64,000 nucleotides of DNA from a phage. The DNA is taken from sequence record PX068455.1; one strand, given 5' to 3'. Position numbers and translations under genes: made by a program. A model generated the notes under the pieces. That model had not been told where the DNA came from. It made no database searches and saw only the letters and a list, made by a program, of their open reading frames with translations. Below are positions 163 through 39,609 of the stretch, piece after piece. Numbering within the stretch: position 1 is the first letter of the stretch; each line of letters opens with the position of its first letter.

Positions 163-434
163 ACGGGCAATTTAACATAATACCCATTATGCGCACCACT
201 GGCGATACATACAGGGATTGATAACATGAGTTACTGTTTACGCATATAACAATTATATTTCTTACTATTTGTGTGGGATATAGTTAGCAACCAATAGATT
301 AGATATTGACCTGCAGACTTCTGACCGTCCAGACGTCTAAACGCCCACACACCAAGGGTTATACATACATTCCTGAATGTAAACAGGGCCGCAAAAATGC
401 TACCATACCAGTTTGTAAATTTTTCATGCAGCAC

Positions 435-546
435 TTGACAAAGAGGAGAAAAACTTGTCTGACACTTTTGCCACTTTTGACACTTTTACCTTTGACACAA
501 TGTCACACAATATGCCATAATCTGACACCTTATACACTTTCGACAC
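435..546. repeat. Cluster of imperfect direct repeats (T)TTGACAC / TGACAC
   Basis: About six copies (ttgacaa, ctgacac, tttgccac, tttgacac x2, tctgacac, ttcgacac) spaced 10-20 bp in a gene-free region. Confidence 0.5.
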
Positions 547-585
547 AATAACGACTGTTATTATTTCATGTTTCATTGTTCACGT

Positions 586-645
586 ATAGACTATTCCCGC
601 ATAGACTGTTTACGCCTGGATAGTTTACACCTTGACAGTTTACAC
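586..645. repeat. Direct repeats GTTTAC(A/G)C with TAGACT repeats
   Basis: gtttacgc, gtttacac x2 at ~15-bp spacing; two further copies near 1047 and 1090. Confidence 0.45.
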
Positions 646-663
646 AAAGATGATAAGCCATGA

Positions 664-889
664 CATTCGTTTGCATGATAACAATTAACAAGTTAATAAT
701 ATATGACATAATATAAAAGCAGGGCAACTATTAGCAGATCTATAGTTGCCTTGCTTGTTATGTCATGATTAACTAAATACAAGGCAACTATGATCTGATT
801 AATAGATTGCAGACAAACTATCACGGGGGTGATTGTTACTGCTTTTATATTATGTCGCGACTCCGTCGCGCCATGCCATTCGTTTGCAT
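664..889. repeat. Nested direct and inverted repeats (palindromic structure)
   Basis: 13-mer cattcgtttgcat at ~664 and ~877; 18-bp inverted arms gacataatataaaagcag (~705) / ctgcttttatattatgtc (~839); inner 9-bp inverted repeat ggcaactat..atagttgcc (~723-750). Confidence 0.5.
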
Positions 890-1971: not shown

Positions 1972-2115
1972 GGTGTTTTTACCTCTTAGTTAATTTTCTT
2001 ACAACTTCCCTTCAAAAAAGAATATAGCAAAACTGCCGATCCCTGTCAACCAGGGATAGCATAATTTTTATGTGATCAAGGGGCTTTATTGCCCCTGACC
2101 ATGTAACTTGTTGTA

Positions 2116-2379
2116 TTATTTGTTGCTCATCCAGTTTTCCCAAGCTGCCTGATAATCTGCCTCACTACGGCGGATCTCTTCTTGCTCTTCAAGGCGGATC
2201 TCTTCTTCCAGGTACCCCAAGATGTCAGCCTTTTTAGTCTGGCGTAGCATCCAGTCATCTTTTTTGCGAGTGAAGATCTTATAAGCTTTCTCGCAAACCT
2301 CTTTTTTGCTACCTTTCTGGACTTCAAGAACACGATAAGCCATATATTGAACTAATTTGAGCTGATCAAGACGTTTCAT
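2116..2379 (-). CDS. hypothetical protein (87 aa)
   Basis: ORF track; upstream TTGAAT-N17-TAAGAT promoter, GGGCC-aaaa-GGCCC leader hairpin, SD AAAGAGG. Confidence 0.5.
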   Translation of the reverse strand: MKRLDQLKLVQYMAYRVLEVQKGSKKEVCEKAYKIFTRKKDDWMLRQTKKADILGYLEEEIRLEEQEEIRRSEADYQAAWENWMSNK

Positions 2380-2439
2380 GATGTTTACCTCTTTGTGCGG
2401 TTCTGATTAGTGGGCCTTTTGGCCCGTGTCATTATCTTA

Positions 2440-2712
2440 TTACTTATGGCGGCAGAATTCAAGCGTTTTTAATTGATAATCTTCCTCAGCCTGGAGTACG
2501 ACCGCCTCGATCATTTCGTTGGCATTGTTAAAGCCATAACCTTTAGCGAACTCATCCGCGCCACCTTCGTGATCATGTTCTGCGTTCATCGCTTCCACAA
2601 AATGGAATTCCAAATTGTTGAGGTAGGGGCTTGATGTTCCGTCCTCTTTTTCGATGAGATCCCAAATAGCATTAAAACGTGATTCGACTTCTTGATTAAT
2701 CCAGCTTGACAT
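2440..2712 (-). CDS. hypothetical acidic protein (90 aa)
   Basis: ORF track; preceded by promoter, hairpin and SD AGGAGAGAGG. Confidence 0.5.
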   Translation of the reverse strand: MSSWINQEVESRFNAIWDLIEKEDGTSSPYLNNLEFHFVEAMNAEHDHEGGADEFAKGYGFNNANEMIEAVVLQAEEDYQLKTLEFCRHK

Positions 2713-2766
2713 AGTGTTTTCCTCTCTCCTGGTTGTTGTGTGGGCACTTTTGCCCCTTCAAGATAA

Positions 2767-2795
2767 ATGTTACCTCACCCCATGGCAGATGTCAA
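2767..2795 (-). promoter_or_regulatory. sigma70-like promoter TTGACA-N17-TAACAT
   Basis: Hexamers read on minus strand upstream of the 2712 start; coordinates approximate. Confidence 0.45.
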
Positions 2796-2826
2796 CGGTT
2801 TTTATAGTTCTTATATGACAGGCAGG

Positions 2827-2843
2827 CCCGGTGATTGTCTCCC
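2827..2843 (-). repeat. Third copy of core motif GGGAGACAAyCACCGGG (minus orientation)
   Basis: Plus strand reads cccggtgattgtctccc, the reverse complement of cores at 12321 and 12455; intergenic. Confidence 0.5.
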
Positions 2844-2929
2844 CCTGTTCCCAAGTGCCGCCCGTTTAATAAGAATAGCAAAAGGGGCCGAACAAGTCAA
2901 CCCCAAAATCAGTACCAAAACACTTTTAT

Positions 2930-3241
2930 TTATACGGTCCGATCATTGGCCTTTGTCCAGGACCTGGCGATCCGTTTCCCGGTCACCTGGAACGGAGGCT
3001 GCATTGTGTGTAATGAGTCCAGAGTAAGGGAGGACCGTTTACGGCGTATCTTCAGGATCGCTAACGTATTGTCCATCTCACGGCCAGGTCCTGGGCGGTA
3101 TGGTGTGCCTCCAGCGTTAAGGTTGATGATCTCATGTATTGAGATCCGGCGTTGTTTTGCTTCCGCATCTTTGAAGATAGCCAGCGGAGGCGCTATGCGT
3201 TGCCGATACCAATCTAAAACGGTTGGCGTAATAGCGATCAT
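2930..3241 (-). CDS. hypothetical protein (103 aa)
   Basis: ORF track; start overlaps upstream stop (ATGA coupling). Confidence 0.4.
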   Translation of the reverse strand: MIAITPTVLDWYRQRIAPPLAIFKDAEAKQRRISIHEIINLNAGGTPYRPGPGREMDNTLAILKIRRKRSSLTLDSLHTMQPPFQVTGKRIARSWTKANDRTV

Positions 3242-3429
3242 ATTTTACCCCCTATGTAGTCCGGTCGGTTTTTCTCTGTCATACGCTTAAGCAATTCTTG
3301 CATGTTGCTTATGGCTTGTAGTGTATCCTCTTCAAGGGATGAATCAAGATAATCAGGATCATTCTTCACCTTGCAATGATTATGATAACGCAGTACCGCC
3401 AGTACTTTTTTAACTTCTTCCGCTGTCAT
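3238..3429 (-). CDS. hypothetical protein (63 aa)
   Basis: ORF track; co-directional, coupled to downstream ORF. Confidence 0.45.
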   Translation of the reverse strand: MTAEEVKKVLAVLRYHNHCKVKNDPDYLDSSLEEDTLQAISNMQELLKRMTEKNRPDYIGGKI

Positions 3430-3437
3430 TATCGCGC

Positions 3438-3572
3438 CTAAAACAATGAGTTAATATATAACACCAGATCGCTGACTACCAGGACAACATTAATCAGCAC
3501 ATACCTAACCATAAAGGGAAAGATCGCCAACATTGCCGCCACGATCCCCATGGTAATAATTATCTTTCTCAT
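3438..3572 (-). CDS. small hydrophobic protein (44 aa), not in ORF track
   Basis: ATG 2 nt after upstream stop; translation MRKIIITMGIVAAMLAIFPFMVRYVLINVVLVVSDLVLYINSLF read manually; no clear SD. Confidence 0.3.
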   Translation of the reverse strand: MRKIIITMGIVAAMLAIFPFMVRYVLINVVLVVSDLVLYINSLF

Positions 3573-3574
3573 GG

Positions 3575-3859
3575 TTAACGGTTCACGTAAGTTTTCCCGT
3601 TCACGGTTATGGGCAGATCCTCCAGGTCTGGATCTTCCTTAAGGTCGCGAGCAAGCTCACCGCACCGGATACCCTCGAATCCGTAGTACTCTGTTGTGCC
3701 GTCCTTAAAAGTTTTAGCGGCAAGGCATAAGCGATAAGTAACCCCGATTTGATTGACGGCATGAATATCCGTTAGATTAACCTCTTTTGCCAGCTCTTTA
3801 GCCATTACAGGCGCATTAAGTCCAACAACCAGGGTAACCACTGCGATCATCTTTTTCAT
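3575..3859 (-). CDS. secreted protein with N-terminal signal peptide (94 aa)
   Basis: MKKMIAVVTLVVGLNAPVMA signal-peptide-like N-terminus. Confidence 0.5.
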   Translation of the reverse strand: MKKMIAVVTLVVGLNAPVMAKELAKEVNLTDIHAVNQIGVTYRLCLAAKTFKDGTTEYYGFEGIRCGELARDLKEDPDLEDLPITVNGKTYVNR

Positions 3860-3950
3860 TGTGTCTATCCTCTTTCTGCTACGTTTAAGGCGGCGGTAAC
3901 CGCCTGTTTATGCTTTGTTGGTTAATTTTCAGGTATCTGTATAAATTAAA

Positions 3951-4166
3951 CTATGCTGTACGCTCAACTATAACAACGGTTTGGGGGATCTCCCCTTCCA
4001 CCACTAGTAAGGCCTTTTTCTGCGTGATAGATATCTTTACCCGTTGCAGCGTGGCGGTGAAGTCTTTCATTTCGTCACGCGGTGTTTTAGTGCAGTACCA
4101 GATCTCAGGCTTGCCGATCTGTAAGTTGCGTAAAAATTCCGTTTTGCCTGTTTTGTTAGTGATCAT
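3951..4166 (-). CDS. hypothetical protein (71 aa)
   Basis: ORF track; consistent with minus array; antisense ORF 3910..4302 rejected. Confidence 0.45.
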   Translation of the reverse strand: MITNKTGKTEFLRNLQIGKPEIWYCTKTPRDEMKDFTATLQRVKISITQKKALLVVEGEIPQTVVIVERTA

Positions 4167-4175
4167 TTGCCAACC

Positions 4176-4280
4176 TCACCCGATACCGTTGGAAGACAAG
4201 ATCATATTAGACATGGTTGCAATCAGGCCAATACCCAGGGCAATAACCAAGATCACTGCATCGATTAATTTCTGTTTCAT
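4176..4280 (-). CDS. small membrane peptide (34 aa), not in ORF track
   Basis: MKQKLIDAVILVIALGIGLIATMSNMILSSNGIG read manually; stop 9 nt before next ATG. Confidence 0.3.
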   Translation of the reverse strand: MKQKLIDAVILVIALGIGLIATMSNMILSSNGIG

Positions 4281-4357
4281 GGTGTTTATTCTCTTCTGTT
4301 AGTAACCTTATTCATGGGGCCGCTACCACAGCCCCAGGGTAAGGCAGCTATGTGCTT

Positions 4358-4603
4358 TTAGTGTTTCATTCCAACCATCGCGGCACGGATCGCCGTAGTG
4401 CTGTACTTGAAGCCGTCCGGGGTCTTATCTTGTCCGGTTAGCTCCAGAAAAAGCATCATATCCCGCGCCGCATCATTACGATTAGCATTGGCGTTAATAA
4501 AGCCTTGGGCCAACCGGTACAATGACTCATCGTTATTAATCCAAAGGCTTACATTCCAATGAGTTTTGTTTTTGTAACCGTTATAACCTTTATTGCTTTT
4601 CAT
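4358..4603 (-). CDS. hypothetical protein (81 aa)
   Basis: ORF 4358..4684 trimmed to internal ATG (residue 28) preceded by SD AAGAGG; TTGACA-N17-CATAAT promoter and GC hairpin lie inside the longer ORF. Confidence 0.5.
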   Translation of the reverse strand: MKSNKGYNGYKNKTHWNVSLWINNDESLYRLAQGFINANANRNDAARDMMLFLELTGQDKTPDGFKYSTTAIRAAMVGMKH

Positions 4604-4690
4604 GGTGTTTACCTCTTCTTTGTTCCAGGTGGCGGACCATTCCACCGCCTTATGTATTATGCTTTGTAAGATGGCTGTTGTCAAACTATT

Positions 4691-4870
4691 TTAACGATAA
4701 TCATCGTACGCTTTATTAACCTGGCGGATATAACATTCAAAAGCCAGATCAATAGATTTATATTCACGGATATACTCACCATAGGAAACCACATACATTT
4801 CTATAGCTTCCTCATATGCGAGGAGAATAGAATCTAAGCCTACGATCTCAGTCTTTGCAATAATAGCCAT
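4691..4870 (-). CDS. hypothetical protein (59 aa), below ORF-track threshold
   Basis: ATG preceded by SD AGAGGAT; MAIIAKTEIVGLDSILLAYEEAIEMYVVSY... read manually. Confidence 0.4.
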   Translation of the reverse strand: MAIIAKTEIVGLDSILLAYEEAIEMYVVSYGEYIREYKSIDLAFECYIRQVNKAYDDYR

Positions 4871-4945
4871 GATTTTTATCCTCTTTGTAGTTGGTGGGGT
4901 TCGTTGCCCCCTTTGATTTATATATTACAGTCTTATATGGTCATG

Positions 4946-5179
4946 TCAACTATTTTCAAAAAATTTTTCTGCTGTGATATTCTTCCCGGTAGGGTTCGCT
5001 ACTTTCAAAATTTTATCATGCACTGGACGCCCAAAAGAATAAGCGCCGTACACAGTAAACCAATAATCGCCGTCAGGTTGTACTATTACTGCCGCATATG
5101 GTACGCCTTTTTCGTTTTTGCTGACAAAATAGATCACGTTGCCATTAATAGCCTCGGCGCGTTTAATTTGTTCCATCAT
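4946..5179 (-). CDS. hypothetical protein (77 aa)
   Basis: ORF track; SD AGAGAGG upstream; antisense 4904..5245 rejected. Confidence 0.5.
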   Translation of the reverse strand: MMEQIKRAEAINGNVIYFVSKNEKGVPYAAVIVQPDGDYWFTVYGAYSFGRPVHDKILKVANPTGKNITAEKFFENS

Positions 5180-5234
5180 GATGATTTGCCTCTCTTTATT
5201 TTCATAATTGGGGGCCTTTTCGGCCCCGCCAGGT

Positions 5235-5519
5235 TTATTTATTGATAGCGTGCAGCGGGAAAGCTACGCCAGGTTGATAAATAACCTTTACAACCTCATC
5301 AGGACAAAAGAAGTTGCAGAACTCACCGCAATAGGCCTCATCCTCTTTCAACTCTTCATCAACATACTCAAAAAAGTAGTCGATGCTTGGATAATCCTGG
5401 CCGTGATTATAGTCAACCATCGTTAATAATAACTCTTGATCATTCCGTAGGATGTGCATACCCGCTTTTAAGTATTTTGCTTCCATTTCTACTACATTGC
5501 CAGCGGTAACAATAGCCAT
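5235..5519 (-). CDS. hypothetical acidic protein (94 aa)
   Basis: ORF track; co-directional. Confidence 0.5.
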   Translation of the reverse strand: MAIVTAGNVVEMEAKYLKAGMHILRNDQELLLTMVDYNHGQDYPSIDYFFEYVDEELKEDEAYCGEFCNFFCPDEVVKVIYQPGVAFPLHAINK

Positions 5520-5721
5520 GATTTTAACTCCTATCTATCTGGTCAACGATTGGGGGCCTCCCCCTCGACAACTCTTATTATCCATATTGTCGGGAATGAT
5601 GCAAGTACTTCTTTAAAAATTTTTTAAGCGCCCCGTATGCCGTTGTAACGCCAAAATAATAAAGGCCATGCAACCGCATGGCCTTTATGTGATTATATTG
5701 CTGTAGGCCCTGCCTGGGGCC

Positions 5722-6072
5722 TTATTTTGCATTCTTGCCTGTATTGCCGCCACGGTACCAGCGTTTGCGGTGAAAATGGTAATAATCACCCTCGGCATTA
5801 AACATCAGATGATTTTCAATAACCAGCTTACGAAGGTGGGCCGGATCTTGTTCCATTCTTGCCAGATTCCGGCGGCTGTTACGTAAGCGTATAAATTCCA
5901 TATTCAGGCCGTTGATTGCAGCATGGATGTCAAAGTAACCACCTTTGAGACGTTCACGCATGGCGTTAAGCTCAACACAATATACAGATTTCTCACAAAT
6001 CAAGGTATTAGCTAGGGCGCGGACCTGGGCAAGGGGGTTAAGCTCATTAAGGTAATATAGTTTGACTTTCAT
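5722..6072 (-). CDS. hypothetical protein (116 aa)
   Basis: ORF track. Confidence 0.5.
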   Translation of the reverse strand: MKVKLYYLNELNPLAQVRALANTLICEKSVYCVELNAMRERLKGGYFDIHAAINGLNMEFIRLRNSRRNLARMEQDPAHLRKLVIENHLMFNAEGDYYHFHRKRWYRGGNTGKNAK

Positions 6073-6089
6073 AAAATCGCCTGCTGAAA

Positions 6090-6410
6090 TTAGTTTGAGA
6101 AAACATCGTTCACAATAGCGATCACAATGCCGCCCACCTTGTCACGGTCAGCAATGCACAAATCACCATGGATCATGCGGTAGTCTGGATGATCTTTCAC
6201 AGAATAGTCAATAAGTGTTTTCTTGTCGTCCAGCTTCGTAACTTCCATTCTCATAACGATATGAGAATCATCAAAGGCATTATTCCGAAAAGTCATAGCC
6301 TGACCGCCAGGGCACCCGGTGATCTCAACTTCCACGCCGTCTACGATCTGACCATCAAAGAAATAGAGATTATTGGCGGGTATAAACATGATCATTGCTC
6401 CTTTTTGCAC
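6090..6410 (-). CDS. hypothetical protein (106 aa)
   Basis: ORF track; preceded by SD AAAGGAG and conserved 45-bp module. Confidence 0.5.
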   Translation of the reverse strand: MQKGAMIMFIPANNLYFFDGQIVDGVEVEITGCPGGQAMTFRNNAFDDSHIVMRMEVTKLDDKKTLIDYSVKDHPDYRMIHGDLCIADRDKVGGIVIAIVNDVFSN

Positions 6411-6433
6411 TGATTATTTTAACAGGGTTTAAA

Positions 6434-6478
6434 TTTACTTTATTGATGGCCCTGGAGTCAAGGCCATCTAAAAATAAA
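6434..6478 (-). promoter_or_regulatory. Conserved 45-bp promoter/operator module, copy 1
   Basis: Identical 45-mer in 3 copies; minus strand reads TTGACT within inverted repeat GATGGCC..GGCCATC, then TAAATT 18 bp downstream. Confidence 0.5.
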
Positions 6479-6480
6479 TT

Positions 6481-6681
6481 TTACAGATCTACAATCTCTT
6501 TAATTCGTTTTACTGCTGCCTCAGCGCCTTGAGGGTAGAAATTATGATAACCAATCACGCGGGTAATACTGATCGCCGCTTGGTGGTCCTCGTAGTCGCC
6601 TTTGAATATTTCTTGACCATCAACCAGCACAGCAATTTTTTCTTCTTTTTTGAAGTTAATAACGCGGATATTGTTGCTCAT
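6481..6681 (-). CDS. hypothetical protein (66 aa)
   Basis: ORF track. Confidence 0.45.
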   Translation of the reverse strand: MSNNIRVINFKKEEKIAVLVDGQEIFKGDYEDHQAAISITRVIGYHNFYPQGAEAAVKRIKEIVDL

Positions 6682-6780
6682 TTTGTTTCTCCTTTTGGAA
6701 CTTTGTCTGTGTGGTGGGGAGTGTCTCCCCGTTGATTGTTATTATCCATATTCTGGACCGGATTGCAACACTCAGGAAGA

Positions 6781-6826
6781 AAAATTTTTTGAAAAAAGTT
6801 AGGCCCCCAGGGATCGGGGGCCGTTA
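6781..6826 (-). terminator. Rho-independent terminator
   Basis: GGCCCCC-gatccct-GGGGGCC hairpin followed on minus strand by TAACTTTTTTCAAAAAATTTTT. Confidence 0.55.
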
Positions 6827-6946
6827 TCAGTTGCTTACAGCGATAAAATACATCCCTACGCCTAACAATATTTCAAGGGCGATGATCTCAAGCCATACCA
6901 TAACACGGCGCGCCTTATCGGTGCGGGGCTTATCCTTGGTTGTCAT
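6827..6946 (-). CDS. small membrane peptide (39 aa), not in ORF track
   Basis: ATG preceded by GGGGGAG; MTTKDKPRTDKARRVMVWLEIIALEILLGVGMYFIAVSN read manually. Confidence 0.3.
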   Translation of the reverse strand: MTTKDKPRTDKARRVMVWLEIIALEILLGVGMYFIAVSN

Positions 6947-7055
6947 CGTCTCCCCCTTCCCTCCTGCTAGCAGTTACGTGGTTTGCAATGGCCCCCAGTA
7001 GTCCGATCACGACACACATCGCAAGAAAAATTATCTCTCCCGTTGTTCGATCCAT
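6930..7055 (-). CDS. small membrane peptide (41 aa), internal start of ORF 6930..7115
   Basis: Internal ATG with SD GAGAGG; hydrophobic IIFLAMCVVIGLLGAI; longer form would start at GTG without SD. Confidence 0.25.
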   Translation of the reverse strand: MDRTTGEIIFLAMCVVIGLLGAIANHVTASRREGGDDDNQG

Positions 7056-7165
7056 TGTTATAAAACCTCTCAAGATCAGGCCTAAAAGTAAATCTTTCGT
7101 TATTGAATCCGTCACGCCAGGCGGCTGGCTTCAAATCTTCACTAAATGGATTAATTAACGTGGCA

Positions 7166-7537
7166 TTATTTAAACGGTTGGCCCACATATTTTCTATTCC
7201 TCTCAAATAAGCGATCCGCCTCAGTTAAACAAATCTCATGGGCGTGATCTCTGGTTTTAGCTTCATCGAAAACCTGTTGTGCAAGGCTGCAACGTAGGGA
7301 GACTGGGAGATCACTATAATAGGCGTTGACAAACGTTTGAGCGTCGTACAGGTCTGAAAATACTTTACCCTTTCTATTATTCCCCTTGTCAACAATTGCA
7401 AGGATAACCAATACAATAGTTGCAACCACCCCCAGGAAAATAGATATAATAAACCATAAAAAGGCGGATCTCCCCATCTTGCCAGCGATCCAGGCGTTAA
7501 ACAAGGCAACCAATATAGCCAAAATAATAAATTCCAT
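7166..7537 (-). CDS. membrane protein (123 aa)
   Basis: ORF 7166..7570 trimmed to ATG (residue 12) with SD AAGAGG; two hydrophobic helices (MEFIILAILVALFNAWIAG, FLWFIISIFLGVVATIVLVILAIV). Confidence 0.5.
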   Translation of the reverse strand: MEFIILAILVALFNAWIAGKMGRSAFLWFIISIFLGVVATIVLVILAIVDKGNNRKGKVFSDLYDAQTFVNAYYSDLPVSLRCSLAQQVFDEAKTRDHAHEICLTEADRLFERNRKYVGQPFK

Positions 7538-7601
7538 TCTATGTACCTCTTTTACAGTTCTGATCAACAATAAGGCGGCAAATATGCCGCCTGTTACCTG
7601 A

Positions 7602-7982
7602 TTAAAAATTATCGCCGTAAATCTTTCCGCTTTCTACCCATACCACCACGCGAGGCATACTATCCCACACGTCTTGTTTTAGATTGAGCGCGTGCAATTC
7701 TTCGGTGGTGCTCATACCGGGCACGGGCTGATTGTATACTGCAAAACGACCACCCGCATAATCATAGGCCAGGGTTAAATCACACTGGATCATCTTTTTG
7801 ATCATGGCATTAAGCATGGCGTTAGCCGCATACTGATCACGTTTTAAAGGCAACTCTTTGATTAGTTTGCGATAGTTTTCGATATGGTCGCACACTGTTT
7901 CACGCGGAAGATCTTTCATATCTTCACGGAATGTAACCAGGTTAAACATAACGGTGTCAATAGCCTTGGTAGTGGTTTTCAT
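7602..7982 (-). CDS. hypothetical protein (126 aa)
   Basis: ORF track; own promoter and leader hairpin. Confidence 0.5.
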   Translation of the reverse strand: MKTTTKAIDTVMFNLVTFREDMKDLPRETVCDHIENYRKLIKELPLKRDQYAANAMLNAMIKKMIQCDLTLAYDYAGGRFAVYNQPVPGMSTTEELHALNLKQDVWDSMPRVVVWVESGKIYGDNF

Positions 7983-8035
7983 GATTTTATCCTCTTTGTT
8001 TTGTGTGGGGCAAGACGTTTGCCCCTTGAGTTTTT

Positions 8036-8063
8036 AATATAGCAGGTTTTTAGATTATTGCAA
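8036..8063 (-). promoter_or_regulatory. sigma70-like promoter TTGCAA-N16-TATATT
   Basis: Read on minus strand; followed by leader hairpin GGGGCAAACGTCTTGCCCC, SD AAGAGGA and the 7982 start. Confidence 0.5.
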
Positions 8064-8071
8064 CACTTTAT

Positions 8072-8695
8072 TTATGAAAAACTCATCTCCCCATATTCAT
8101 CCACATCAAACCGCCAATCATTGGCCTCGATAAGGCCGATCAAGTATTCTGCGGTGAACTGTTCTAGATAGGCCTCCTCCAGGTCTACGTAAACCTTGCG
8201 GGATAGCTCCCGTACCGTCTCGGTGATCAGTTCTTCCAGGTCTTCCACTTTGTTTTCTTGTTTGGCGGTCAGATCTAGCCAAGTGGTATCAATGTACCCG
8301 CTTACAGTGTTTTCATGGCTGTAATGGCTGTACTTGTCGCGTTCAACACTGGCTGATAACTCGCCATCGTGCATTGTGCCGAACAAGTGACGAATTGATC
8401 TGAACTTGGTCAGGGCCTTGACTTTACGCAAAAATTTTTCTAAATCCACGTTTTCAGCACTGATTGACGCGCCGTCACCCTGGCACCAAAAGCCGGACCA
8501 ATGTACTTCGGTATCTTCAAGGCCGTACTCTGGAAAAACTTGTTCTTTATAGTATTCAATTACATTTTCTGCGAAAAAATCATCCCCGCTGCGTTCTTCT
8601 CTTTCGCGGACCATTTCAATGGCTTTTTCTTTTTGTTCGTCGGTTAGCACGTCGAAAGATAAATTGTAACCTGTGGTAATGTTAACGGTGGTCAT
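8072..8695 (-). CDS. hypothetical acidic protein (207 aa)
   Basis: ORF track; high Asp/Glu content; function unknown. Confidence 0.55.
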   Translation of the reverse strand: MTTVNITTGYNLSFDVLTDEQKEKAIEMVREREERSGDDFFAENVIEYYKEQVFPEYGLEDTEVHWSGFWCQGDGASISAENVDLEKFLRKVKALTKFRSIRHLFGTMHDGELSASVERDKYSHYSHENTVSGYIDTTWLDLTAKQENKVEDLEELITETVRELSRKVYVDLEEAYLEQFTAEYLIGLIEANDWRFDVDEYGEMSFS

Positions 8696-8752
8696 GATAT
8701 TTTCTCCTGTTTTCTTTGTTAGTGGCGGGAAGTTTTCCCGCCTGTGTGTTTA

Positions 8753-8780
8753 ATTATACTTATTGAGATTTACTTGTCAA
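8753..8780 (-). promoter_or_regulatory. Consensus sigma70 promoter TTGACA-N16-TATAAT
   Basis: Perfect consensus hexamers on minus strand; -35 overlaps last codons of upstream gene; followed by hairpin GGCGGGAAAACTTCCCGCC and SD AGGAG. Confidence 0.6.
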
Positions 8781-9030
8781 CACTATTTTTTAAATTATTG
8801 TGGCGCAAAATGTTTAAAATCTCCTCAACGTCATCAACACGGCGGCAATTTTTAAACGCTACCAATTGCCCCATGATTTTAATCACTGGGCGGCCTTGCC
8901 AGTGACCCTGGAGAAAGCGCGCCTTGACTTTATCGGTGGAACTATCACGCCACCAAATAGCCTTGTTGTTGCAGTAGTAAAAATTATTCAGGATAACATC
9001 AACTTTATCAAAATTTTTTAATTTACGCAT
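8770..9030 (-). CDS. hypothetical protein (86 aa)
   Basis: ORF track; own promoter upstream. Confidence 0.5.
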   Translation of the reverse strand: MRKLKNFDKVDVILNNFYYCNNKAIWWRDSSTDKVKARFLQGHWQGRPVIKIMGQLVAFKNCRRVDDVEEILNILRHNNLKNSVDK

Positions 9031-9062
9031 GGCGTTTACTCCTTTCTCTCTTTGATGTGGTT

Positions 9063-9090
9063 AGTATAGCTAACCTGTTGACGATGTCAA
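9063..9090 (-). promoter_or_regulatory. sigma70-like promoter TTGACA-N16-TATACT
   Basis: Read on minus strand upstream of the 9030 start. Confidence 0.55.
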
Positions 9091-9210
9091 TGATATTTTT
9101 AACGCCATAAAACGGCCCTGGGCGATGTTTTCAGGTTAAGGGGGGCGATTGCATAGGTGGGGGCCTTTTTGGCGCTTACAGGGCCAACCAGGGGCGCTAT
9201 TAGTAGGATA

Positions 9211-9240
9211 GAAATAAAAAGCCCCGCACAATGGCGGGGC
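9211..9240 (-). terminator. Rho-independent terminator
   Basis: Perfect 7-bp stem GCCCCGC/GCGGGGC followed on minus strand by TTTTTATTT, directly after the 9249 stop. Confidence 0.6.
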
Positions 9241-9248
9241 GTTGGTTG

Positions 9249-9446
9249 TTATTTGTCTTTATGGCGATATCGTTCTGCCTGTCGTTCACGTTCCAAAAGT
9301 AGGCCGGGCAATTTACGATCATAATGATTGCGCCAGATCTTCCCAAACCTTTTTGGCTTATTCAGTTTATTGTTACGCTGGCGGCGTTCTGGCAGCTCTT
9401 CGGAATCATGAGGGCGCTTTACAATTTTCTCGAAATTAATTTTCAT
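9249..9446 (-). CDS. small highly basic protein (65 aa), possible nucleic-acid binder
   Basis: ORF 9249..9470 trimmed to internal ATG (residue 9); Arg/Lys-rich. Confidence 0.4.
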   Translation of the reverse strand: MKINFEKIVKRPHDSEELPERRQRNNKLNKPKRFGKIWRNHYDRKLPGLLLERERQAERYRHKDK

Positions 9447-9789
9447 ATCTTCCCCCCTTGCTAACTTCAATATTGGCCTGAATAGCCCGGATGCGGCGCT
9501 TTATAACTTCCTGATCTGTGTGGTCGTATCCCCAAAAGTCTACAATTTTTGCGCCACCCGCTTCCAGGCGGTATAGTGTTTCCTGCATTTTGTAAGCCGG
9601 GATCGGTCGCGGTGTTACTTGGTCGCCTTCTTTATTTTTATACTTTATAATATAATCTTCGTTATCGTTGAATGCCCAAAATGGATATTCTGCAAGGGCG
9701 GTACTTCCTCTTTCCTTTTTATCCTGGATCTTATTTACAATTAAAGCCGTAGCAATAGCGCCAATAATAAAACTAGCCCCGCTAATCAT
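9436..9789 (-). CDS. membrane-anchored protein (117 aa)
   Basis: N-terminal hydrophobic helix ISGASFIIGAIATALIV. Confidence 0.5.
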   Translation of the reverse strand: MISGASFIIGAIATALIVNKIQDKKERGSTALAEYPFWAFNDNEDYIIKYKNKEGDQVTPRPIPAYKMQETLYRLEAGGAKIVDFWGYDHTDQEVIKRRIRAIQANIEVSKGGRYEN

Positions 9790-9865
9790 GTGTACTTTCT
9801 CCTTTCATGGTGTTAATAAATTATCTTTATAGATGGCCCTGCAACCAGGACCACCGAAAAAATAA

Positions 9866-10111
9866 CTATTTCACAATGCCTACAAAACAGATCCCGCCTT
9901 CACCTATGTAAGCAATATCGGTAACTTTATAATTTGTCAAGATCTGTTTATTTAGTTCATTAATAAAATCGGTCATTGCGTTGGTGTAGTTGTCTTCCAT
10001 ATCTAAGGCATAATCCCAGGCGTAAGCCTTTTTACGTCCGAAGCCTTTTACCATGATACGGGCGCTTTTGGTGTTGGTGGGCGCATAATATTTGGTGATT
10101 AGTGCTGCCAT
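9866..10111 (-). CDS. hypothetical protein (81 aa)
   Basis: ORF track; preceded by 45-bp module copy 2 and SD GAGGAG. Confidence 0.5.
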   Translation of the reverse strand: MAALITKYYAPTNTKSARIMVKGFGRKKAYAWDYALDMEDNYTNAMTDFINELNKQILTNYKVTDIAYIGEGGICFVGIVK

Positions 10112-10151
10112 GGTTTTAACTCCTCATTAGTTCAGTGTTAACAGTGTAAAG

Positions 10152-10196
10152 TTTACTTTATTGATGGCCCTGGAGTCAAGGCCATCTAAAAATAAA
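10152..10196 (-). promoter_or_regulatory. Conserved 45-bp promoter/operator module, copy 2
   Basis: Identical to copies at 6434 and 10773; TTGACT-N18-TAAACT on minus strand. Confidence 0.5.
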
Positions 10197-10197
10197 T

Positions 10198-10539
10198 TTA
10201 CTCGTTTTCTTCCAGCTCTGAAAGCTCTTCTTTCACTTCTTCGAGCTCTGTCTGCAATTCTTGGTACTCTTCATCGTCCTCAATATCCAGGCTGTCGATG
10301 TAGTCGCTAAATCCGCAGCGGTAAGCGATAGGATCTAGCTCCTTGAGGATACGCGACGGAAGAAAAGAAATGTTTCCGATCATAATTTCGCCGTAGATCT
10401 CGTCTAACCATTCATCATAGTTTTCGTCGTACTTGTCCTCGTCGATTTCAAAGTTATCGATCTTGTTCTCAAGGTCTGCGATCTGTTTTTTCAGCGCGGC
10501 GATCTGCATAGCTTTTTCTGCGGCGGTCATAGTAGTCAT
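10198..10539 (-). CDS. highly acidic coiled-coil protein (113 aa), possible DNA mimic
   Basis: Very high Asp/Glu content (EEVKEELSELEENE tail); own promoter and leader hairpin. Confidence 0.5.
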   Translation of the reverse strand: MTTMTAAEKAMQIAALKKQIADLENKIDNFEIDEDKYDENYDEWLDEIYGEIMIGNISFLPSRILKELDPIAYRCGFSDYIDSLDIEDDEEYQELQTELEEVKEELSELEENE

Positions 10540-10590
10540 GGTGTTTTCTCCTTTTGTGTGTTCTGGGAAGTTTTCCCGTTTACGTGTTTA

Positions 10591-10618
10591 AGTATACCGA
10601 TTTGGGTTAGCTTGTCAA
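10591..10618 (-). promoter_or_regulatory. sigma70-like promoter TTGACA-N16-TATACT
   Basis: Read on minus strand; followed by hairpin GGGAAAACTTCCC and SD AAAGGAGA. Confidence 0.55.
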
Positions 10619-10738
10619 TTAAAAATTTAAGAAAAATTTTGCAAAACTGTTGGCGCTACTCATTAACATTTGCGCCAGGATGTAACCGACAACGCAAACG
10701 ATAATAGTTACCTTTGTGTATTGGCGTGTAGTGCTCAT
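10619..10738 (-). CDS. small membrane peptide (39 aa), not in ORF track
   Basis: ATG preceded by AAAGGGGG, just downstream of module copy 3; MSTTRQYTKVTIIVCVVGYILAQMLMSS... read manually. Confidence 0.35.
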   Translation of the reverse strand: MSTTRQYTKVTIIVCVVGYILAQMLMSSANSFAKFFLNF

Positions 10739-10772
10739 CTTAAAGCCCCCTTTTTCGCTTAGTTGAGACTAG

Positions 10773-10817
10773 TTTACTTTATTGATGGCCCTGGAGTCAA
10801 GGCCATCTAAAAATAAA
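10773..10817 (-). promoter_or_regulatory. Conserved 45-bp promoter/operator module, copy 3
   Basis: Identical 45-mer; TTGACT within inverted repeat GATGGCC/GGCCATC. Confidence 0.5.
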
Positions 10818-10818
10818 C

Positions 10819-11223
10819 TTAGTAAGTTTTCAGTACTTTACCGTCCAACCTGTCAAGCTGGATCTCGATAGCTGCAGAAAACCTATTGTACACCACGTCG
10901 CCCATAGAATCCAACCAATCTATGACGTTATACACCTGCTCTTTGTTCTTACAGGTCCGGATCCGTTTCATGATGTAAGCCGGATCAATATTGGTACTCT
11001 CGTCGGTGTTCCCCTGTACCTGGTTTGCCGTATTAGTTACATCTTTAATGGCCTTTACCACCACCTGGAAGGGCTTTAAGGTACCTTTTGCGTTCATCTC
11101 ACGCGCTTTTGCGGCGCGGTTGTTATATGTTACACAACGGCGGCAAATGTTGATCAAATGCATGTCAATAATTTTTTCATCGTTTGCCAGTTCATTCATG
11201 ATGCGGCGTACGTTCTTATTCAT
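10819..11223 (-). CDS. hypothetical protein (134 aa)
   Basis: ORF 10819..11322 trimmed to ATG at residue 34; the in-frame upstream part contains promoter and leader hairpin. Confidence 0.5.
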   Translation of the reverse strand: MNKNVRRIMNELANDEKIIDMHLINICRRCVTYNNRAAKAREMNAKGTLKPFQVVVKAIKDVTNTANQVQGNTDESTNIDPAYIMKRIRTCKNKEQVYNVIDWLDSMGDVVYNRFSAAIEIQLDRLDGKVLKTY

Positions 11224-11272
11224 GATCTTTTTTCCTTTGTGTTGGCGGGAAACATTCCCGCCTTTTGTGCCC

Positions 11273-11300
11273 AGTTTACTTGAATTTTGCAGCGTGTCAA
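11273..11300 (-). promoter_or_regulatory. sigma70-like promoter TTGACA-N16-TAAACT
   Basis: Read on minus strand; followed by hairpin GGCGGGAATGTTTCCCGCC and SD AGGAAAAAAG. Confidence 0.5.
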
Positions 11301-11306
11301 CAATTT

Positions 11307-11705
11307 TTATTCGTGGGCGCATGTTACAATGTGCTTTTTATAGCCCAGGCGGTCAGCAAGTGCCGACAAAAACTCTTCTTCGTAGATCCAGCCGTCGGCA
11401 GTGATCCCCATAGCATTTAATGCGCTCTCAAGTGCTGCGTTGGCTTTATCATAACCGTGACCGCTCGCCTTGCCTCCAGTATAGCCGTACTTATTGTTCT
11501 TGTTGTCGTGTATCCAAAAAACGCAGTAGTGAGTGTTCCCGCTGGCGGCGGCATAATACCGGATCTCAGCTACTTCGTGCAAATTATTGTCATCGTCCAG
11601 GCCCACCAGATTATAAGCCTTGTAAAATCCACGATCACGGCGGCAGTTCTTGACATCAGAAAAAGAAAAGTCCGCATTATCAAAATTAAAGGTAGTGGTT
11701 TTCAT
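11307..11705 (-). CDS. hypothetical protein (132 aa)
   Basis: ORF track. Confidence 0.5.
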   Translation of the reverse strand: MKTTTFNFDNADFSFSDVKNCRRDRGFYKAYNLVGLDDDNNLHEVAEIRYYAAASGNTHYCVFWIHDNKNNKYGYTGGKASGHGYDKANAALESALNAMGITADGWIYEEEFLSALADRLGYKKHIVTCAHE

Positions 11706-11769
11706 GATTTTATCCTCTTAGTGTCTTTTGTGCTTTTAGTGTATTTGGTGTCGGACTGTATGTCAATAC

Positions 11770-11967
11770 TTATTTTTTATTAAACCAGTGGTTGATCTGG
11801 CCTTTTGTCAGGGCGCAACGATTAAGCTGTTGCCGAGTATAGCTCTGACCGCGACGGAATTTATAAAGGCCTTGCCCGTTGTTGATGGTTACATCCACCC
11901 GGCAAACCATTTGATCGGTGACCACCTGGCGAGTGTTGCGACGTACTTTGATTCCGTAGGCGTTCAT
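11770..11967 (-). CDS. small basic protein (65 aa)
   Basis: ORF track; SD AGAGAGGAT upstream; weak TTGACA-N17-TATTCT promoter. Confidence 0.45.
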   Translation of the reverse strand: MNAYGIKVRRNTRQVVTDQMVCRVDVTINNGQGLYKFRRGQSYTRQQLNRCALTKGQINHWFNKK

Positions 11968-12320
11968 GATTTTTTATCCTCTCTGTTAATTGGTGTGGTG
12001 TTGTTCACCTTGCGAGGATAAGAATAACAATAACTGTACGAGCTGTCAACCATTAGTTAGAATTATTTTTTTTGGGCAGAATTCTCCAGCCGCCGCCCCT
12101 ACCAGGTTAACCATCGTTTTTTCGTACTCTTCTTTATGTTCCAACGCTCCCGCCATAGCCTTTTCAACCAGGGCGATAGCCTCAGCGTCATTAATCGCTA
12201 CATTTCCAGGGGATCAAATTACCTTTCATTTTTGTACCTCCTCTTCAATTGTTACCTGCCCTATAGCATAGGCCTACCAGGTTTGCAAGCTTTCACTCTC
12301 ACGGCAGGCACCGGTGACGG

Positions 12321-14238: not shown

Positions 14239-14430
14239 TCACTTGTTGTTAAGAAGTTCTAAAACTTTCTGTTTTACTTTATCAAGGTCTGTTGATTCAA
14301 AAACTGTGCGATATCCCCAACTTTGCCCATAGGAATGACTGCAATCCCCGTAACACCATTGCTCAACTTGATAGTATTCAAGGAATGGGTGCTGTCTAAC
14401 TATGATGCCGTCTCGATTAAAAATTACCAT
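14239..14430 (-). CDS. hypothetical protein (63 aa)
   Basis: ORF track. Confidence 0.4.
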   Translation of the reverse strand: MVIFNRDGIIVRQHPFLEYYQVEQWCYGDCSHSYGQSWGYRTVFESTDLDKVKQKVLELLNNK

Positions 14431-26801: not shown

Positions 26802-27284
26802 TTAAACCCGGATACCTATTGTATACTCGGTGGATACCAATGTCAAATCTAAATTTAAAATTTCTTGCATCTCATAGTATGCATCCAGAGTGAGATACAT
26901 TTCCCCATCCTCTTCTACATACTTGTCGAGATGTTTGAGGCACTTTGGATAACTATCAAGGGCAGCTTTTAAGCACTCAAACTCCGTGCTGTTGATGAAT
27001 CCTTCCATCTTGGCTACCCGTTCTGGAGTAACAATAGCACTGTAGTGAGATTTAGCTTCCTGAATGCAATGGGTCCAAGCATCAACTTTCTCTTCAAAAA
27101 GCCCGAAGAATTTCTTTTTGGTAAGTTTCAGATTTTTTAAGTGCTTAAGCACTCGGTTGCCGATTACAGCCACATCACGAAACTTAAAGATAACTTTGTC
27201 GATATCCTCGCGGCCTATTTTCACAAAGCAGGCCTTGCACATCTCGGGAGCAGCGTAGCCTACCTTCCACATAAAATCTGACAT
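26802..27284 (-). CDS. hypothetical protein (160 aa)
   Basis: ORF track. Confidence 0.5.
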   Translation of the reverse strand: MSDFMWKVGYAAPEMCKACFVKIGREDIDKVIFKFRDVAVIGNRVLKHLKNLKLTKKKFFGLFEEKVDAWTHCIQEAKSHYSAIVTPERVAKMEGFINSTEFECLKAALDSYPKCLKHLDKYVEEDGEMYLTLDAYYEMQEILNLDLTLVSTEYTIGIRV

Positions 27285-39056: not shown

Positions 39057-39069
39057 CACGTTTTTGATG

Positions 39070-39098
39070 TTGACATCTGTTGAGACAATTGATACGAT
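39070..39098 (+). promoter_or_regulatory. sigma70-like promoter TTGACA-N17-TACGAT (divergent, plus)
   Basis: Read on plus strand upstream of the HNH gene. Confidence 0.45.
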
Positions 39099-39129
39099 TT
39101 CTTCACTTACAGAGCACGAGAGACGACGC

Positions 39130-39609
39130 ATGAATCTTGAAAAATATTATACACCAGAAGAGTTAGAGCGCTTGCTCAAAAAATATAGACGCAAACAGAA
39201 TAACGCACGGAAACGAGATATAGAGTTCGACCTGTCATGGGAAGAATACCTCCTATTTGGTAAAAAACTTTTAGGAGATGGAGTATGCGACTATACCCTT
39301 ATACCTTTTGACATGCACACAGATGAAAACGGGCTGGGGAATCCTTTCTACCCATCTTTGGAGCGTATAGATGATGAAGGTCCTTACGCAATTGACAATT
39401 GTTGTGTGGTAGGGTTGAGGTGCAATGCTCTGAAAGACTGTCTGGTAGATAAAAAGACTGCAATCCTGATTAAAGACAAAACTGATCGAAAAATTGTCCA
39501 GCAGATGATGCTCCACCTGAGTGAAGAGCGTATGGAGAAGTTGAAAGGTGATTATACTTTTGAAGATTTCATCTTGCAATACGGGACAGAAGAAGACAGA
39601 AGAAATTGA
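39130..39609 (+). CDS. HNH-family endonuclease-like protein (homing-endonuclease-like; 159 aa)
   Basis: ERIDDEGPYAIDNCCVVGLRCNALK resembles HNH_3-type motif; ORF 39064..39609 trimmed to first ATG downstream of promoter. Confidence 0.45.
   Translation: MNLEKYYTPEELERLLKKYRRKQNNARKRDIEFDLSWEEYLLFGKKLLGDGVCDYTLIPFDMHTDENGLGNPFYPSLERIDDEGPYAIDNCCVVGLRCNALKDCLVDKKTAILIKDKTDRKIVQQMMLHLSEERMEKLKGDYTFEDFILQYGTEEDRRN

Follow-up and report, generated by a model that had tools for sequence, protein, structure and literature searches.

Between positions 2,380 and 11,300 of a 64,000-nucleotide stretch of phage DNA (sequence record PX068455.1; the whole stretch is referred to here as the window), gene after gene is preceded by the same succession of signals: a sigma70-type promoter, a short GC-rich hairpin, a Shine-Dalgarno (SD) sequence and the start codon. 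An earlier note on this DNA had described this recurrent early-region architecture, which turns out to be real, and had put the number of genes that carry it at eight or more; we count ten within 2380-11300. The hairpins are anchored to the promoters, their stems are under selection, their tails are not those of terminators, the same design recurs in other phage lineages, and genes are gained, lost and replaced mostly at breaks inside these cassettes. Our preferred interpretation, tentative and of slightly less than even probability, is that they are modular early-expression cassettes of the promoter-early stem-loop (PeSL) type, in which the hairpin would form a 5'-terminal mRNA structure that protects the 5' end, the cassette doubling as a recombination module. 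The likeness to PeSLs, the insertions, deletions and replacements at the cassettes, and a second type of cassette formed by a 48-nt repeat were not mentioned in the earlier note.

Layout of the early region and anatomy of the cassettes

Over positions 2000-12000 the window matches Escherichia phages ECP2303 and ECP2309 with an identity of 100%, and about 120 rV5-like phages with one of 91-96%; it is a Vequintavirus (rV5-like) genome. The minus strand carries every gene from 1.5 to about 39 kb; since all genes of the array lie on it, the cassettes must be read on this strand, on which all features below are located unless otherwise noted, and on which each unit runs in the order stop codon of the upstream gene, promoter, hairpin, SD, ATG. 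A promoter scan found 51 sigma70-like sites in the interval 1-13 kb, versus 32 +/- 6 in shuffled sequences, and the top minus-strand promoters (12 of 12 consensus matches at 8780-8753; 11 of 12 at 10618, 9090, 4684 and 2049) are each located immediately 5' of a gene. To count the cassettes, the 110 nt located 5' of each gene start were inspected, and promoters and hairpins were scored; both the promoters and the transcription starts are predictions. Conservation was assessed on the homologous region of 16 Vequintavirus genomes, which together with the window gives up to 17 genomes (individual relatives are denoted by L numbers). Leaders were folded from the predicted +1, and the minimum free energy (MFE) was compared with that of 500 dinucleotide shuffles, the result being expressed as a z-score.

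Hairpin cassettes are restricted to 2.3-11.3 kb of the window. The complete units have their ATGs at 2379, 2712, 4603, 4870, 5519, 6681, 7982, 8695, 10539 and 11223, and share one plan: a TTGACA-like box, 16-17 nt, TAnnnT, a GC hairpin of 13-22 nt, a spacer rich in A and C and poor in T, SD, and ATG. The promoters have 8 to 12 of 12 matches to the sigma70 consensus and an AT-rich tract 5' of the -35 box; the stems have 4-8 bp and at most two outer pairs in addition. The last base of the -10 box is separated from the first paired base by 6-13 nt, a gap of exactly 10 nt in six of the ten units, while the position of the hairpin with respect to the upstream stop codon ranges from -23 to +134 nt; the tight spacing to the -10 box indicates that the hairpin is anchored to the promoter. 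On the other side, 20-34 nt separate the hairpin from the ATG, and 6-21 nt from the SD.

Following the window from its low-numbered end, cassette 1 (2377-2462) consists of TTGAAT (2462-2457), 17 nt, TAAGAT (2439-2434), the hairpin GGGCCaaaaGGCCC (2425-2412), an A/C spacer, SD and ATG 2379 (z = -3.1); the hairpin is retained in 17 of 17 genomes, with a loop that changes from AAAA to GGGA. Cassette 2 (2710-2795) combines TTGACA-17-TAACAT (2795-2767), which is P168 of the rV5 genome paper, with the hairpin GGGGCAaaagTGCCC(C) at 2756-2741 and ATG 2712, and cassette 3 (4601-4684) combines TTGACA-17-CATAAT (4684-4656) with GGCGGTGGaatggtCCGCCACC at 4649-4628 and ATG 4603. In cassette 4 (4868-4949), TTGACA-16-TAATAT (4949-4922; P174 of rV5) precedes GGGGGcaacgaaCCCC (4911-4896) and ATG 4870, and both the length of the poly-G/poly-C arms and the loop differ between relatives. 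The hairpin of cassette 5 (5517-5604; TTGCAT-16-GATAAT at 5604-5577, ATG 5519), GGGGGaggCCCCC at 5564-5552, lies inside a longer two-tier fold, and a GC to GU change found in 6 genomes preserves its pairing. Cassette 6 (6679-6768) has TTGCAA-16-GATAAT (6768-6741), GGGGAGacaCTCCCC (6730-6716) and ATG 6681 (z = -3.1); three loop variants (ACAC, GCTAA, AACA) are combined with a constant GGGGA/TCCCC stem. Cassette 7 (7980-8063) has TTGCAA-16-TATATT (8063-8036), GGGGCAAacgtcTTGCCCC (8025-8007) and ATG 7982 (z = -4.0), and its variants, AU to GU and GU to GC, leave the pairs intact; in ESCO5, alia and 121Q, homologs of its gene have other hairpins, at offsets of about 11-14 nt. The promoter of cassette 8 (8693-8780) is the near-consensus TTGACA-16-TATAAT at 8780-8753 that had been singled out in the earlier note; it matches at 12 of 12 positions, corresponds to P185 of rV5, has its -35 box overlapping the 3' end of the upstream gene, and is followed by GGCGGGAAaacTTCCCGCC (8742-8724) and ATG 8695 (z = -4.7). 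Cassette 9 (10537-10618; TTGACA-16-TATACT at 10618-10591, P192 of rV5; GGGAAaacTTCCC at 10577-10565; ATG 10539) has a weak z of -1.1, and its hairpin is retained, at an offset of 12-15, wherever the gene is present. Finally, cassette 10 (11221-11300) has TTGACA-16-TAAACT (11300-11273; P194 of rV5), GGCGGGAAtgtTTCCCGCC (11262-11244) and ATG 11223 (z = -4.3). The four hairpins quoted in the earlier note are all present on the minus strand, as GGCGGGAAAACTTCCCGCC (8742-8724, cassette 8), GGGAAAACTTCCC (10577-10565, cassette 9), GGCGGGAATGTTTCCCGCC (11262-11244, cassette 10) and GGGGCAAACGTCTTGCCCC (8025-8007, cassette 7).

Folding energies against shuffled controls, a check that the earlier note had proposed, give z values from -0.6 to -4.7 for the ten leaders, with four at p<=0.01 and two more below 0.05; the SD is unpaired in every MFE fold. 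The excess over chance is clearer in a pooled set of leaders from the window, the 16 Vequintavirus loci and four more distant loci, selected for a promoter with at least 10 of 12 matches followed by an SD, an ATG and an open reading frame of at least 30 codons, and collapsed to 57 non-redundant leaders. A GC hairpin, here a perfect stem of at least 5 bp with at least 4 G-C pairs, starts 9-14 nt 3' of the -10 box in 16 of the 57, versus 0.33 +/- 0.6 in shuffles (maximum 3 in 200 trials); no qualifying stem occurs at any other offset among these 57 leaders.

Some promoters lack a hairpin, and some hairpins lack a promoter. A strong promoter at 9063-9090 (11 of 12 matches) leads without hairpin, through a 26-nt leader, to ATG 9030, and the promoter scan found good promoters, likewise without hairpin, at 2049-2021, 11766-11738 and 12049-12021. 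The hairpin-less leaders of the genes starting at 9030 and 11705 measure 26 nt, versus 43-53 nt for leaders with a hairpin; as these two are about 20 nt shorter, the hairpin looks like a discrete insert of about 20 nt. Conversely, a GC hairpin at 3888-3905, 28 nt 5' of ATG 3859 and conserved in relatives, has neither a U-tract nor a convincing sigma70 promoter, and is possibly a half-decayed cassette or an intercistronic stabiliser. The hairpins TGGGGCTGTGGTAGCGGCCCCA (4315-4336, 34 nt 5' of ATG 4280) and GGGGCCgaaaaGGCCCC (5211-5227, 31 nt 5' of ATG 5179) also lack a sigma70 promoter; the former has a different stem sequence in L008, where it still pairs.

Selection on the stems, and different hairpins at the same position

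Failure of the hairpins to be conserved in position among related phages had been named beforehand as an observation that would speak against their significance. They are conserved in position in 16 of 16 Vequintavirus genomes, in two Stephanstirmvirinae and in the jumbo phage 121Q: each ortholog of each cassette folds at the same place in each genome, with a dG of -5.5 to -18.4 kcal/mol. Mean pairwise diversity among the up to 17 genomes was calculated separately for each part of the cassette. It is 0.000 in the -35 box, 0.043 in the -10 box, 0.037 and 0.045 in the 5' and 3' stem arms, 0.035 in the SD region and 0.034 in the coding sequence (CDS), and rises to 0.076 in the promoter spacer, 0.084 in the initial transcribed sequence (ITS), 0.095 in the post-hairpin spacer and 0.154 in the loop. 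Loops are the most variable part of the cassette, about four times as variable as the stems, and stems are as constrained as the CDS: the promoter hexamers and both stem arms are under purifying selection, and the loop is free. Variants that break a pair are singletons only (for example in the leader of the gene starting at 8695 in L005, L007 and L013, and of that starting at 11223 in L004), and most of those that preserve pairing (AU/GU, GU/GC, GC/GU) are common to 3-6 genomes. Several stems are pure G(n)/C(n) runs that show length slippage.

Replacements within the genus put other hairpins in the same place. Homology to the window stops, in L009 and L012-L015, within the -35 box of cassette 3, TTGACAACA, or shortly after it, and resumes by window 4645-4676; in L016 the replacement junction is at the -35 box of cassette 4. 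The replacement cassettes of L009 and L012-L016, which occupy the positions of genes 4358-4603 or 4691-4870, have their own -10 box, then 11 nt, another GC hairpin (GGCGGCAatgaTGCCGCT, CGCGGGAAtacTTCCCGC, GGCGGGGCAataaggcaACGCCC), an A/C spacer, an SD and a different gene.

Other lineages repeat the design. In the Stephanstirmvirinae ESCO5 and phi92-like alia the cassette, more stereotyped than in Vequintavirus, reads TTGACA-16/17-TAnnnT, TTAYCACRTAG, GGCGGGAA-N3-5-TTCCCGCC, an A-rich spacer, AAAGG and ATG. In the jumbo phage 121Q (Asteriusvirus) about 20 small genes form an array, and at least 10 of them carry aaagtacTTGCAA-16-TATAAT, followed by gttttacatcRag and then by a GC hairpin, for example GCGGGAAnnnTTCCCGC or GGGGAGAAatgaTTCTCCCC. 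The strongest argument comes from the membrane-protein gene 7602-7982, which has homologs with 61-72% amino acid identity in Stephanstirmvirinae, Avunavirus and 121Q-like jumbo phages of about 350 kb (L018 6046-6408, L019 14996-15358, L140 8010-8372). In four lineages a promoter and a hairpin stand before this gene, at an offset of about 10-14 nt and with a hairpin sequence that differs from one lineage to the next, which suggests that structure and position are maintained rather than any one sequence. Cronobacter GAP32 and Xanthomonas XbC2 have more distantly related genes. In the window, as in L018, L019 and L140, every leader hairpin is G-first, its 5' arm being rich in G and its 3' arm in C, and about 60% of the hairpins across three phage lineages contain an inner core GGGAA-N3/4-TTCCC. 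A scan of IMG/VR with a pattern of promoter plus GGCGGGAA yielded the full hairpin in 7 among the 129 matches listed; the scan was dominated by chance matches and gives no usable distribution.

Tails of the hairpins and comparison with terminators and nut sites

The earlier note had remarked that no U-tract follows the hairpins and that they are not intrinsic terminators, and on both counts it was right. The post-hairpin spacer consists of 55% A, 27% C, 9% T and 9% G, as compared with 25% T on the coding strand of the region; A and C make up 82% of the 10-20 nt after the stem, in tails such as ACTAAC, ACACAA, ACCAAC, ACCACA and AACACA, and T and G are actively depleted. A terminator scan of the minus strand flagged none of the ten leader hairpins. 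Canonical terminators with a U-tract are present elsewhere in the region: AGGCGGCATATTTGCCGCCT followed by TATTGTT at 7573-7592 lies in the same gene array, and others occur at 1533-1514, 5688-5659, 6822-6802 and 9240-9221, the canonical array terminators corresponding to t164, t177, t181 and t184 of the rV5 paper. Leader hairpins resemble intrinsic terminators in their intergenic location, short loop and GC-rich, G-first stem of 5-8 bp, but differ from them in lacking the U-tract and in being placed 3' of a promoter. A promoter followed by a real terminator, an arrangement unlike that of the leader hairpins, occurs at 26818-26846, where a good promoter (TTGACA-17-TACAAT) is followed about 20 nt downstream, before the SD, by the canonical terminator GGCCCTGCCCGAAAGGGTGGGGC TTTTT, the counterpart of t232/t213 of rV5.

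With the boxB element of lambdoid nut sites the hairpins share their small size and their presence in early leaders of strong promoters. However, boxB has a conserved loop and is accompanied by boxA, whereas here the loops are the most variable element and there is no shared boxA-like motif; furthermore, the cassette hairpin occurs before almost every gene and not once per operon. A boxB/nut-like site is rejected as unlikely, since the loops are not conserved, and a Rho rut site in the A/C spacer is rejected because 6-21 nt are far too short for it. An Rfam scan of window 1-30000, based on E-values, returned no match at the gathering score and two sub-threshold chance hits.

Gene exchange at the cassettes and the 48-nt repeat

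The window was aligned to each relative and the breaks were listed. Gene insertions, deletions and replacements break mostly inside cassettes, with junctions at 2376-2411, 4297/4589, 4645-4676, 4944, 9841/10156 and 10196/10771 and 17-47 nt of overlapping homology; breaks away from cassettes are found at 2883/3237 and 5732/6082. In rV5, L014 and L015 there is an additional gene, rV5 ORF166, with a copy of the 36-nt post-hairpin leader (2376-2411) on either side of it. Gene 4358-4603 has been deleted in rV5, L006, L007 and L010 via a 32-nt overlap of neighbouring SD regions, a deletion that places cassette 3 before gene 4176-4280 in substitution of the hairpin 4315-4336. The replacements described above start at or near -35 boxes, and homology is regained at window 4645-4676 and 4944.

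Two more deletions involve a second type of cassette, a 48-nt repeat present in three exact copies in the window, with 0 matches expected by chance. In copy 1 (6431-6480) a 10-bp hairpin, GATGGCCTTGACTCCAGGGCCATC (6468-6445), encloses a -35-like TTGACT, which is followed after 18 nt by TAAATT; copies 2 (10150-10200) and 3 (10771-10820) have their hairpins at 10186-10163 and 10807-10784. A diverged fourth copy, GGTGGTCCTGGTTGCAGGGCCATC at 9832-9855, has lost TTGACT and has kept 10 of 10 pairs by means of three one-sided changes. Deletion 10196/10771 in L015 occurred between copies of the repeat, with a 47-nt overlap and its left end in copy 2, and deletion 9841/10156 in L016 likewise occurred between copies, with its right end in copy 2. 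On both strands the repeat has a T-rich 5' flank and an A-rich 3' flank, so that it is not a canonical terminator in either direction, though the Murica record labels it so. Among the cassettes of the window only this repeat family overlaps the -35 box.

Exchange also reaches across families. The ORFan 14239-14430 (minus strand, 63 aa) shares 90.5% amino acid identity with Phi1 ORF260 (L142 6501-6692), and other Krischvirus phages match it too, which points to recent exchange between PeSL phages and rV5-like phages; the DNA homology to Phi1 (82%) is confined to the CDS and SD, the promoter being excluded, and thus gives no evidence that gene and cassette moved together. In Phi1, three tandem partial-promoter copies, aagttgttgacaagtacaaccgaaaat, lie upstream of this ORFan. 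Gene 2440-2712 is a homolog of rV5 ORF167, for which the rV5 record notes similarity to an RB49 protein; tblastn with this gene retrieved no Krischvirus among the best 60 of 148 records.

Outside the cassettes, all 16 relatives have about 100-140 bp extra at window 12300/12301, which the window is without, and past this point the annotation of ECP2309 is shifted by +130, despite 100% identity over 2000-12000. In the non-coding stretch at window 420-720 (plus strand), short TTGACA(C)/TGACAC repeats are numerous, and there are plus-strand sites that resemble promoters; one of these sites, at 492-521, has 11 of 12 matches and an extended -10 box, and the sites point to a bidirectional terminator at 1514-1533.

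Relation to promoter-early stem-loops

The closest described element is the PeSL of the T4-like phages RB49/phi1, PST/T4 and nt-1/KVP40 (Arbiol et al. 2010, PMC2839356; Comeau et al. 2014, PMC4122927), in which a near-consensus sigma70 promoter, preceded by an AT-rich tract, is combined with a G(n)-loop-C(n) stem-loop, an SD and an ATG. PeSLs are packed between ORFans in hyperplastic regions, and have been proposed to terminate upstream transcription and to mediate the shuffling of genes as modules (PMC2839356; PMC4122927); PeSL mini-circles have been demonstrated in RB49 and phi1 (PMC2839356). An A-rich tract joined to the promoter, AAAATAGT(G/T)TTGACA, is found both in the window and in the PeSLs of Phi1, and the two systems further share the G-first GC stem-loop, the SD and ATG at the 3' end, and the dense packing among small ORFans in a plastic region where insertions, deletions and replacements break in the cassettes. 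The 48-nt repeat, whose hairpin encloses the -35 box, matches a described subclass of PeSLs.

The main class of cassettes differs in the placement of the hairpin. In RB49 and phi1 the stem-loop is mostly located between the -35 box and the -10 box or overlaps them, as we have seen directly in Phi1 (for example, TTGACAggggatcggcgatccccTATACT), and in PST and nt-1 it is upstream of the promoter, whereas in the rV5-, phi92- and 121Q-like phages it is inside the transcript, in the window 6-13 nt after the -10 box, and here it has a T-depleted tail. With this fixed in-transcript position and tail, the published reading of the stem-loop as a terminator or attenuator fits poorly. Moreover, PeSLs have been described only in T4-like phages, whereas the window is a Vequintavirus, and Stephanstirmvirinae and Asteriusvirus have the design as well. 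The genome paper on rV5 includes P168, P174, P185, P192 and P194 among its promoters and omits the hairpins, its terminator list being made up of U-tract structures only (PMC3606486), and the leader hairpins are not annotated in the GenBank records of Murica and rV5. In the literature, whose searchable part is incomplete, we found no description of this architecture in Vequintavirinae or their relatives; nor did we find Vequintavirus transcriptomics, or hairpins reported at PVP-SE1 or phi92 promoters. The elements of the window are best classed as PeSL-like cassettes that occur outside the T4-like phages and whose stem-loop has shifted to within the 5' end of the transcript.

A possible role at the 5' end of the message

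Among the four functions that the earlier note had offered, stabilisation of the mRNA 5' end, unproven as it is, is the best fit. Transcription by E. coli RNA polymerase usually begins 7-8 nt beyond the -10 box, at a purine that follows a pyrimidine. If the host polymerase behaves likewise here, about 3-5 nt would separate the 5' end of the mRNA from the stem-loop; in 'TATAAT taaacacaca GGCGGG', for example, a start at the A of position 8, or possibly 6, would leave 3-5 unpaired nt before an 8-bp GC stem. A GC stem nearer to the -10 box would enter the melted region, and 10 nt may be as close to a terminal position as the promoter allows. A 5'-terminal stem-loop would hinder both conversion of the end by RppH and its recognition by the 5'-monophosphate sensor of RNase E, so that short monocistronic messages would live longer, while the spacer, poor in G and U, would keep the SD single-stranded. 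In read-through transcripts the hairpin may act as a barrier to 3' exonucleases and shield the ribosome site from the sequence that precedes it. A side effect would be that the repeated cassette, of 60-90 nt, offers homology for inserting, deleting and swapping small genes.

5'-terminal stem-loops reportedly stabilise mRNA in E. coli, in work attributed to Emory, Bouvet and Belasco in 1992, Bouvet and Belasco in 1992, and Arnold et al. in 1998; the stem-loops of ompA (hp1) and papA are said to be such stabilisers, by Emory, Bouvet and Belasco in 1992 and by Bricker and Belasco in 1999. A comparable stabiliser is the 5' stem-loop in the leader of T7 gene 10, a leader that pET vectors use. With ompA hp1 and papA the cassettes would share a hairpin placed a few nucleotides from the +1 (predicted here), an unstructured spacer, a strong SD and a dependence on structure rather than sequence, as mirrored here in a diversity of 0.04 in stems versus 0.15 in loops. 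They differ in that the E. coli stabilisers are single, experimentally proven cases, and the cassette is a repeated, exchangeable module, predicted from sequence, on at least 10 genes.

Several points weigh against this interpretation. The 5' overhang is a prediction, as no mapped transcription start for any rV5-like phage was found in the literature. RppH requires only 2-3 unpaired nt, and the predicted overhang of about 3-5 nt, which reaches about 7 in 121Q and in some orthologs of the gene starting at 10539, is at or beyond the usual limit of protection. RNA stability alone explains neither the G-first polarity, which terminators also have, nor the GGGAA-N3/4-TTCCC core; three look-alike hairpins lack a promoter, and no hairpin accompanies four of the strong promoters. 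Folding of the alignments of orthologous leaders revealed no double-sided compensatory change within the genus, only one-sided changes that keep the pair, because the genus, at 4-9% divergence, is too shallow. The stem-loop of the RB49 211/210 PeSL cut the expression of a downstream lacZ as strongly as rrnB T1 (PMC2839356). Finally, RNase E scanning readily bypasses a simple stem-loop (PMC9943677), so that the hairpin protects only if it is truly terminal; a role as an obstacle to RNase E scanning is rejected on the same ground.

The main rival, which we consider unlikely but ahead of the others, is that the stem-loop works in the PeSL style as an attenuator, terminator or pause site, lowering or pausing the transcription that enters from cassettes upstream, perhaps also that from its own promoter, and so keeping expression from building up along the array. 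Terminator stems are typically G-first, a promoter every 300-600 bp makes read-through expected, and the three hairpins without promoter, like the lacZ result with RB49 211/210, would suit such a role. Nevertheless, in place of a U-tract there are tails rich in A and C, the phage ends its transcripts with canonical U-tract terminators, and the hairpin is anchored to the -10 box rather than to the upstream stop codon, which would be unnecessary for a terminator of read-through; being 3' of its own promoter, it would also reduce the expression of its own gene. That the hairpins terminate antisense transcription instead, the plus strand reading next into the U/G-rich complement of the promoter, is very improbable. 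Six of the ten are indeed terminator-like on the plus strand (4896-4910, 6712-6734, 8007-8025, 8724-8742 and 11244-11262, and 2741-2756 by eye), and the promoter-less hairpin 3888-3905 is flagged too, but U-richness is an automatic consequence of an AT-rich promoter, plus-strand genes and strong plus-strand promoters are absent inside the array, and many cassettes have a poor tract beside the stem (GUGUCAU, GUUGAU), as have Stephanstirmvirinae (CUAUGUG) and 121Q (UCUCGAU); we have rejected antisense terminators, whose proximal U-tract is not conserved in the other lineages. RNase III processing sites like those between T7 early genes, another function offered in the earlier note, are hardly credible, even in an intergenic location in an early polycistronic array: substrates of RNase III have about 20 bp, or about two helical turns, and often an internal loop, whereas these stems are too short, lack any internal-loop architecture and find no match in Rfam.

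Protein binding had been offered as well, and in its loop-specific form it is disfavoured, because the loops vary while the stems are conserved. A phage or host protein might recognise the stem, either as RNA or as an inverted repeat in the DNA at +5 to +23, as a repressor for early shut-off or as a marker of messages; we regard this as improbable. The GGGAA-N3/4-TTCCC core (often GGCGGGAA...TTCCCGCC) is present in three of the ten cassettes and in most of those of ESCO5, alia and 121Q, and a site just 3' of +1 is classical for operators; yet seven of the ten stems are unrelated (GGGCC, GGGGCAA, GGGGAG, GGCGGTGG and others), loop lengths of 3 to 8 nt alter the spacing of the half-sites, the loops evolve freely, unlike those of boxB-type sites, and no candidate binding protein has been identified. 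A bolder version, in our estimate no better than a long shot, takes the frequent core as a shared 'self' mark of early messages in Vequintavirinae, Stephanstirmvirinae and 121Q-like phages, by which some factor would spare or boost phage early mRNAs during host shut-off, for example by Srd-like stimulation of RNase E, the cassette travelling with ORFans between families. Slightly less probable still is the absence of any RNA-level function, the hairpin being a DNA feature of a mobile, recombinogenic cassette (through slippage, cruciforms or mini-circles) and owing its position to common descent. The clustering of junctions in the cassettes, the length slippage of poly-G/poly-C, the mini-circles of RB49 and phi1 (PMC2839356), and ORFans common to Phi1 (as with the 63-aa one) and to 121Q-like phages are all in its favour. 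However, stems are conserved like CDS while loops and flanks drift and variation keeps the pairing, unrelated stems stand at the same offset across lineages with different ITS, and most junctions are in the -35 box or SD region and not in the hairpin.

As a side observation on possible Srd-like factors, the rV5 gp11-like gene, a single 347-aa 'anti-termination protein' in ECP2309, appears in the window as two overlapping open reading frames on the plus strand (39064-39609 and 39548-39988). Both halves match PHROG 3118 ('HNH endonuclease') strongly, and the first half has weak PHROG matches to 'decoy of host sigma70' (1e-10) and 'Srd anti-sigma factor' (6e-6); the gene has no Pfam match, and its link to Srd is speculation only.

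Implications

The signature of the cassette can help to locate islands of early accessory genes and to correct start codons in the annotation of large coliphages, and its parts (promoter, 5' hairpin, spacer and ribosome binding site) are compact natural components for synthetic biology. If the hairpin is indeed the 5' end of the message, as in the interpretation that we favour, the PeSL concept would reach beyond the T4-like phages, and the meaning of the stem-loop would shift from that of a terminator to that of an mRNA 5'-end device in a portable promoter cassette. It would explain how dozens of tiny, fast-evolving accessory genes, many of them likely to be anti-defence or host-takeover factors, are expressed as short, stable, individually promoted messages, and it would account for the ease with which such genes are swapped, even between unrelated phage families.

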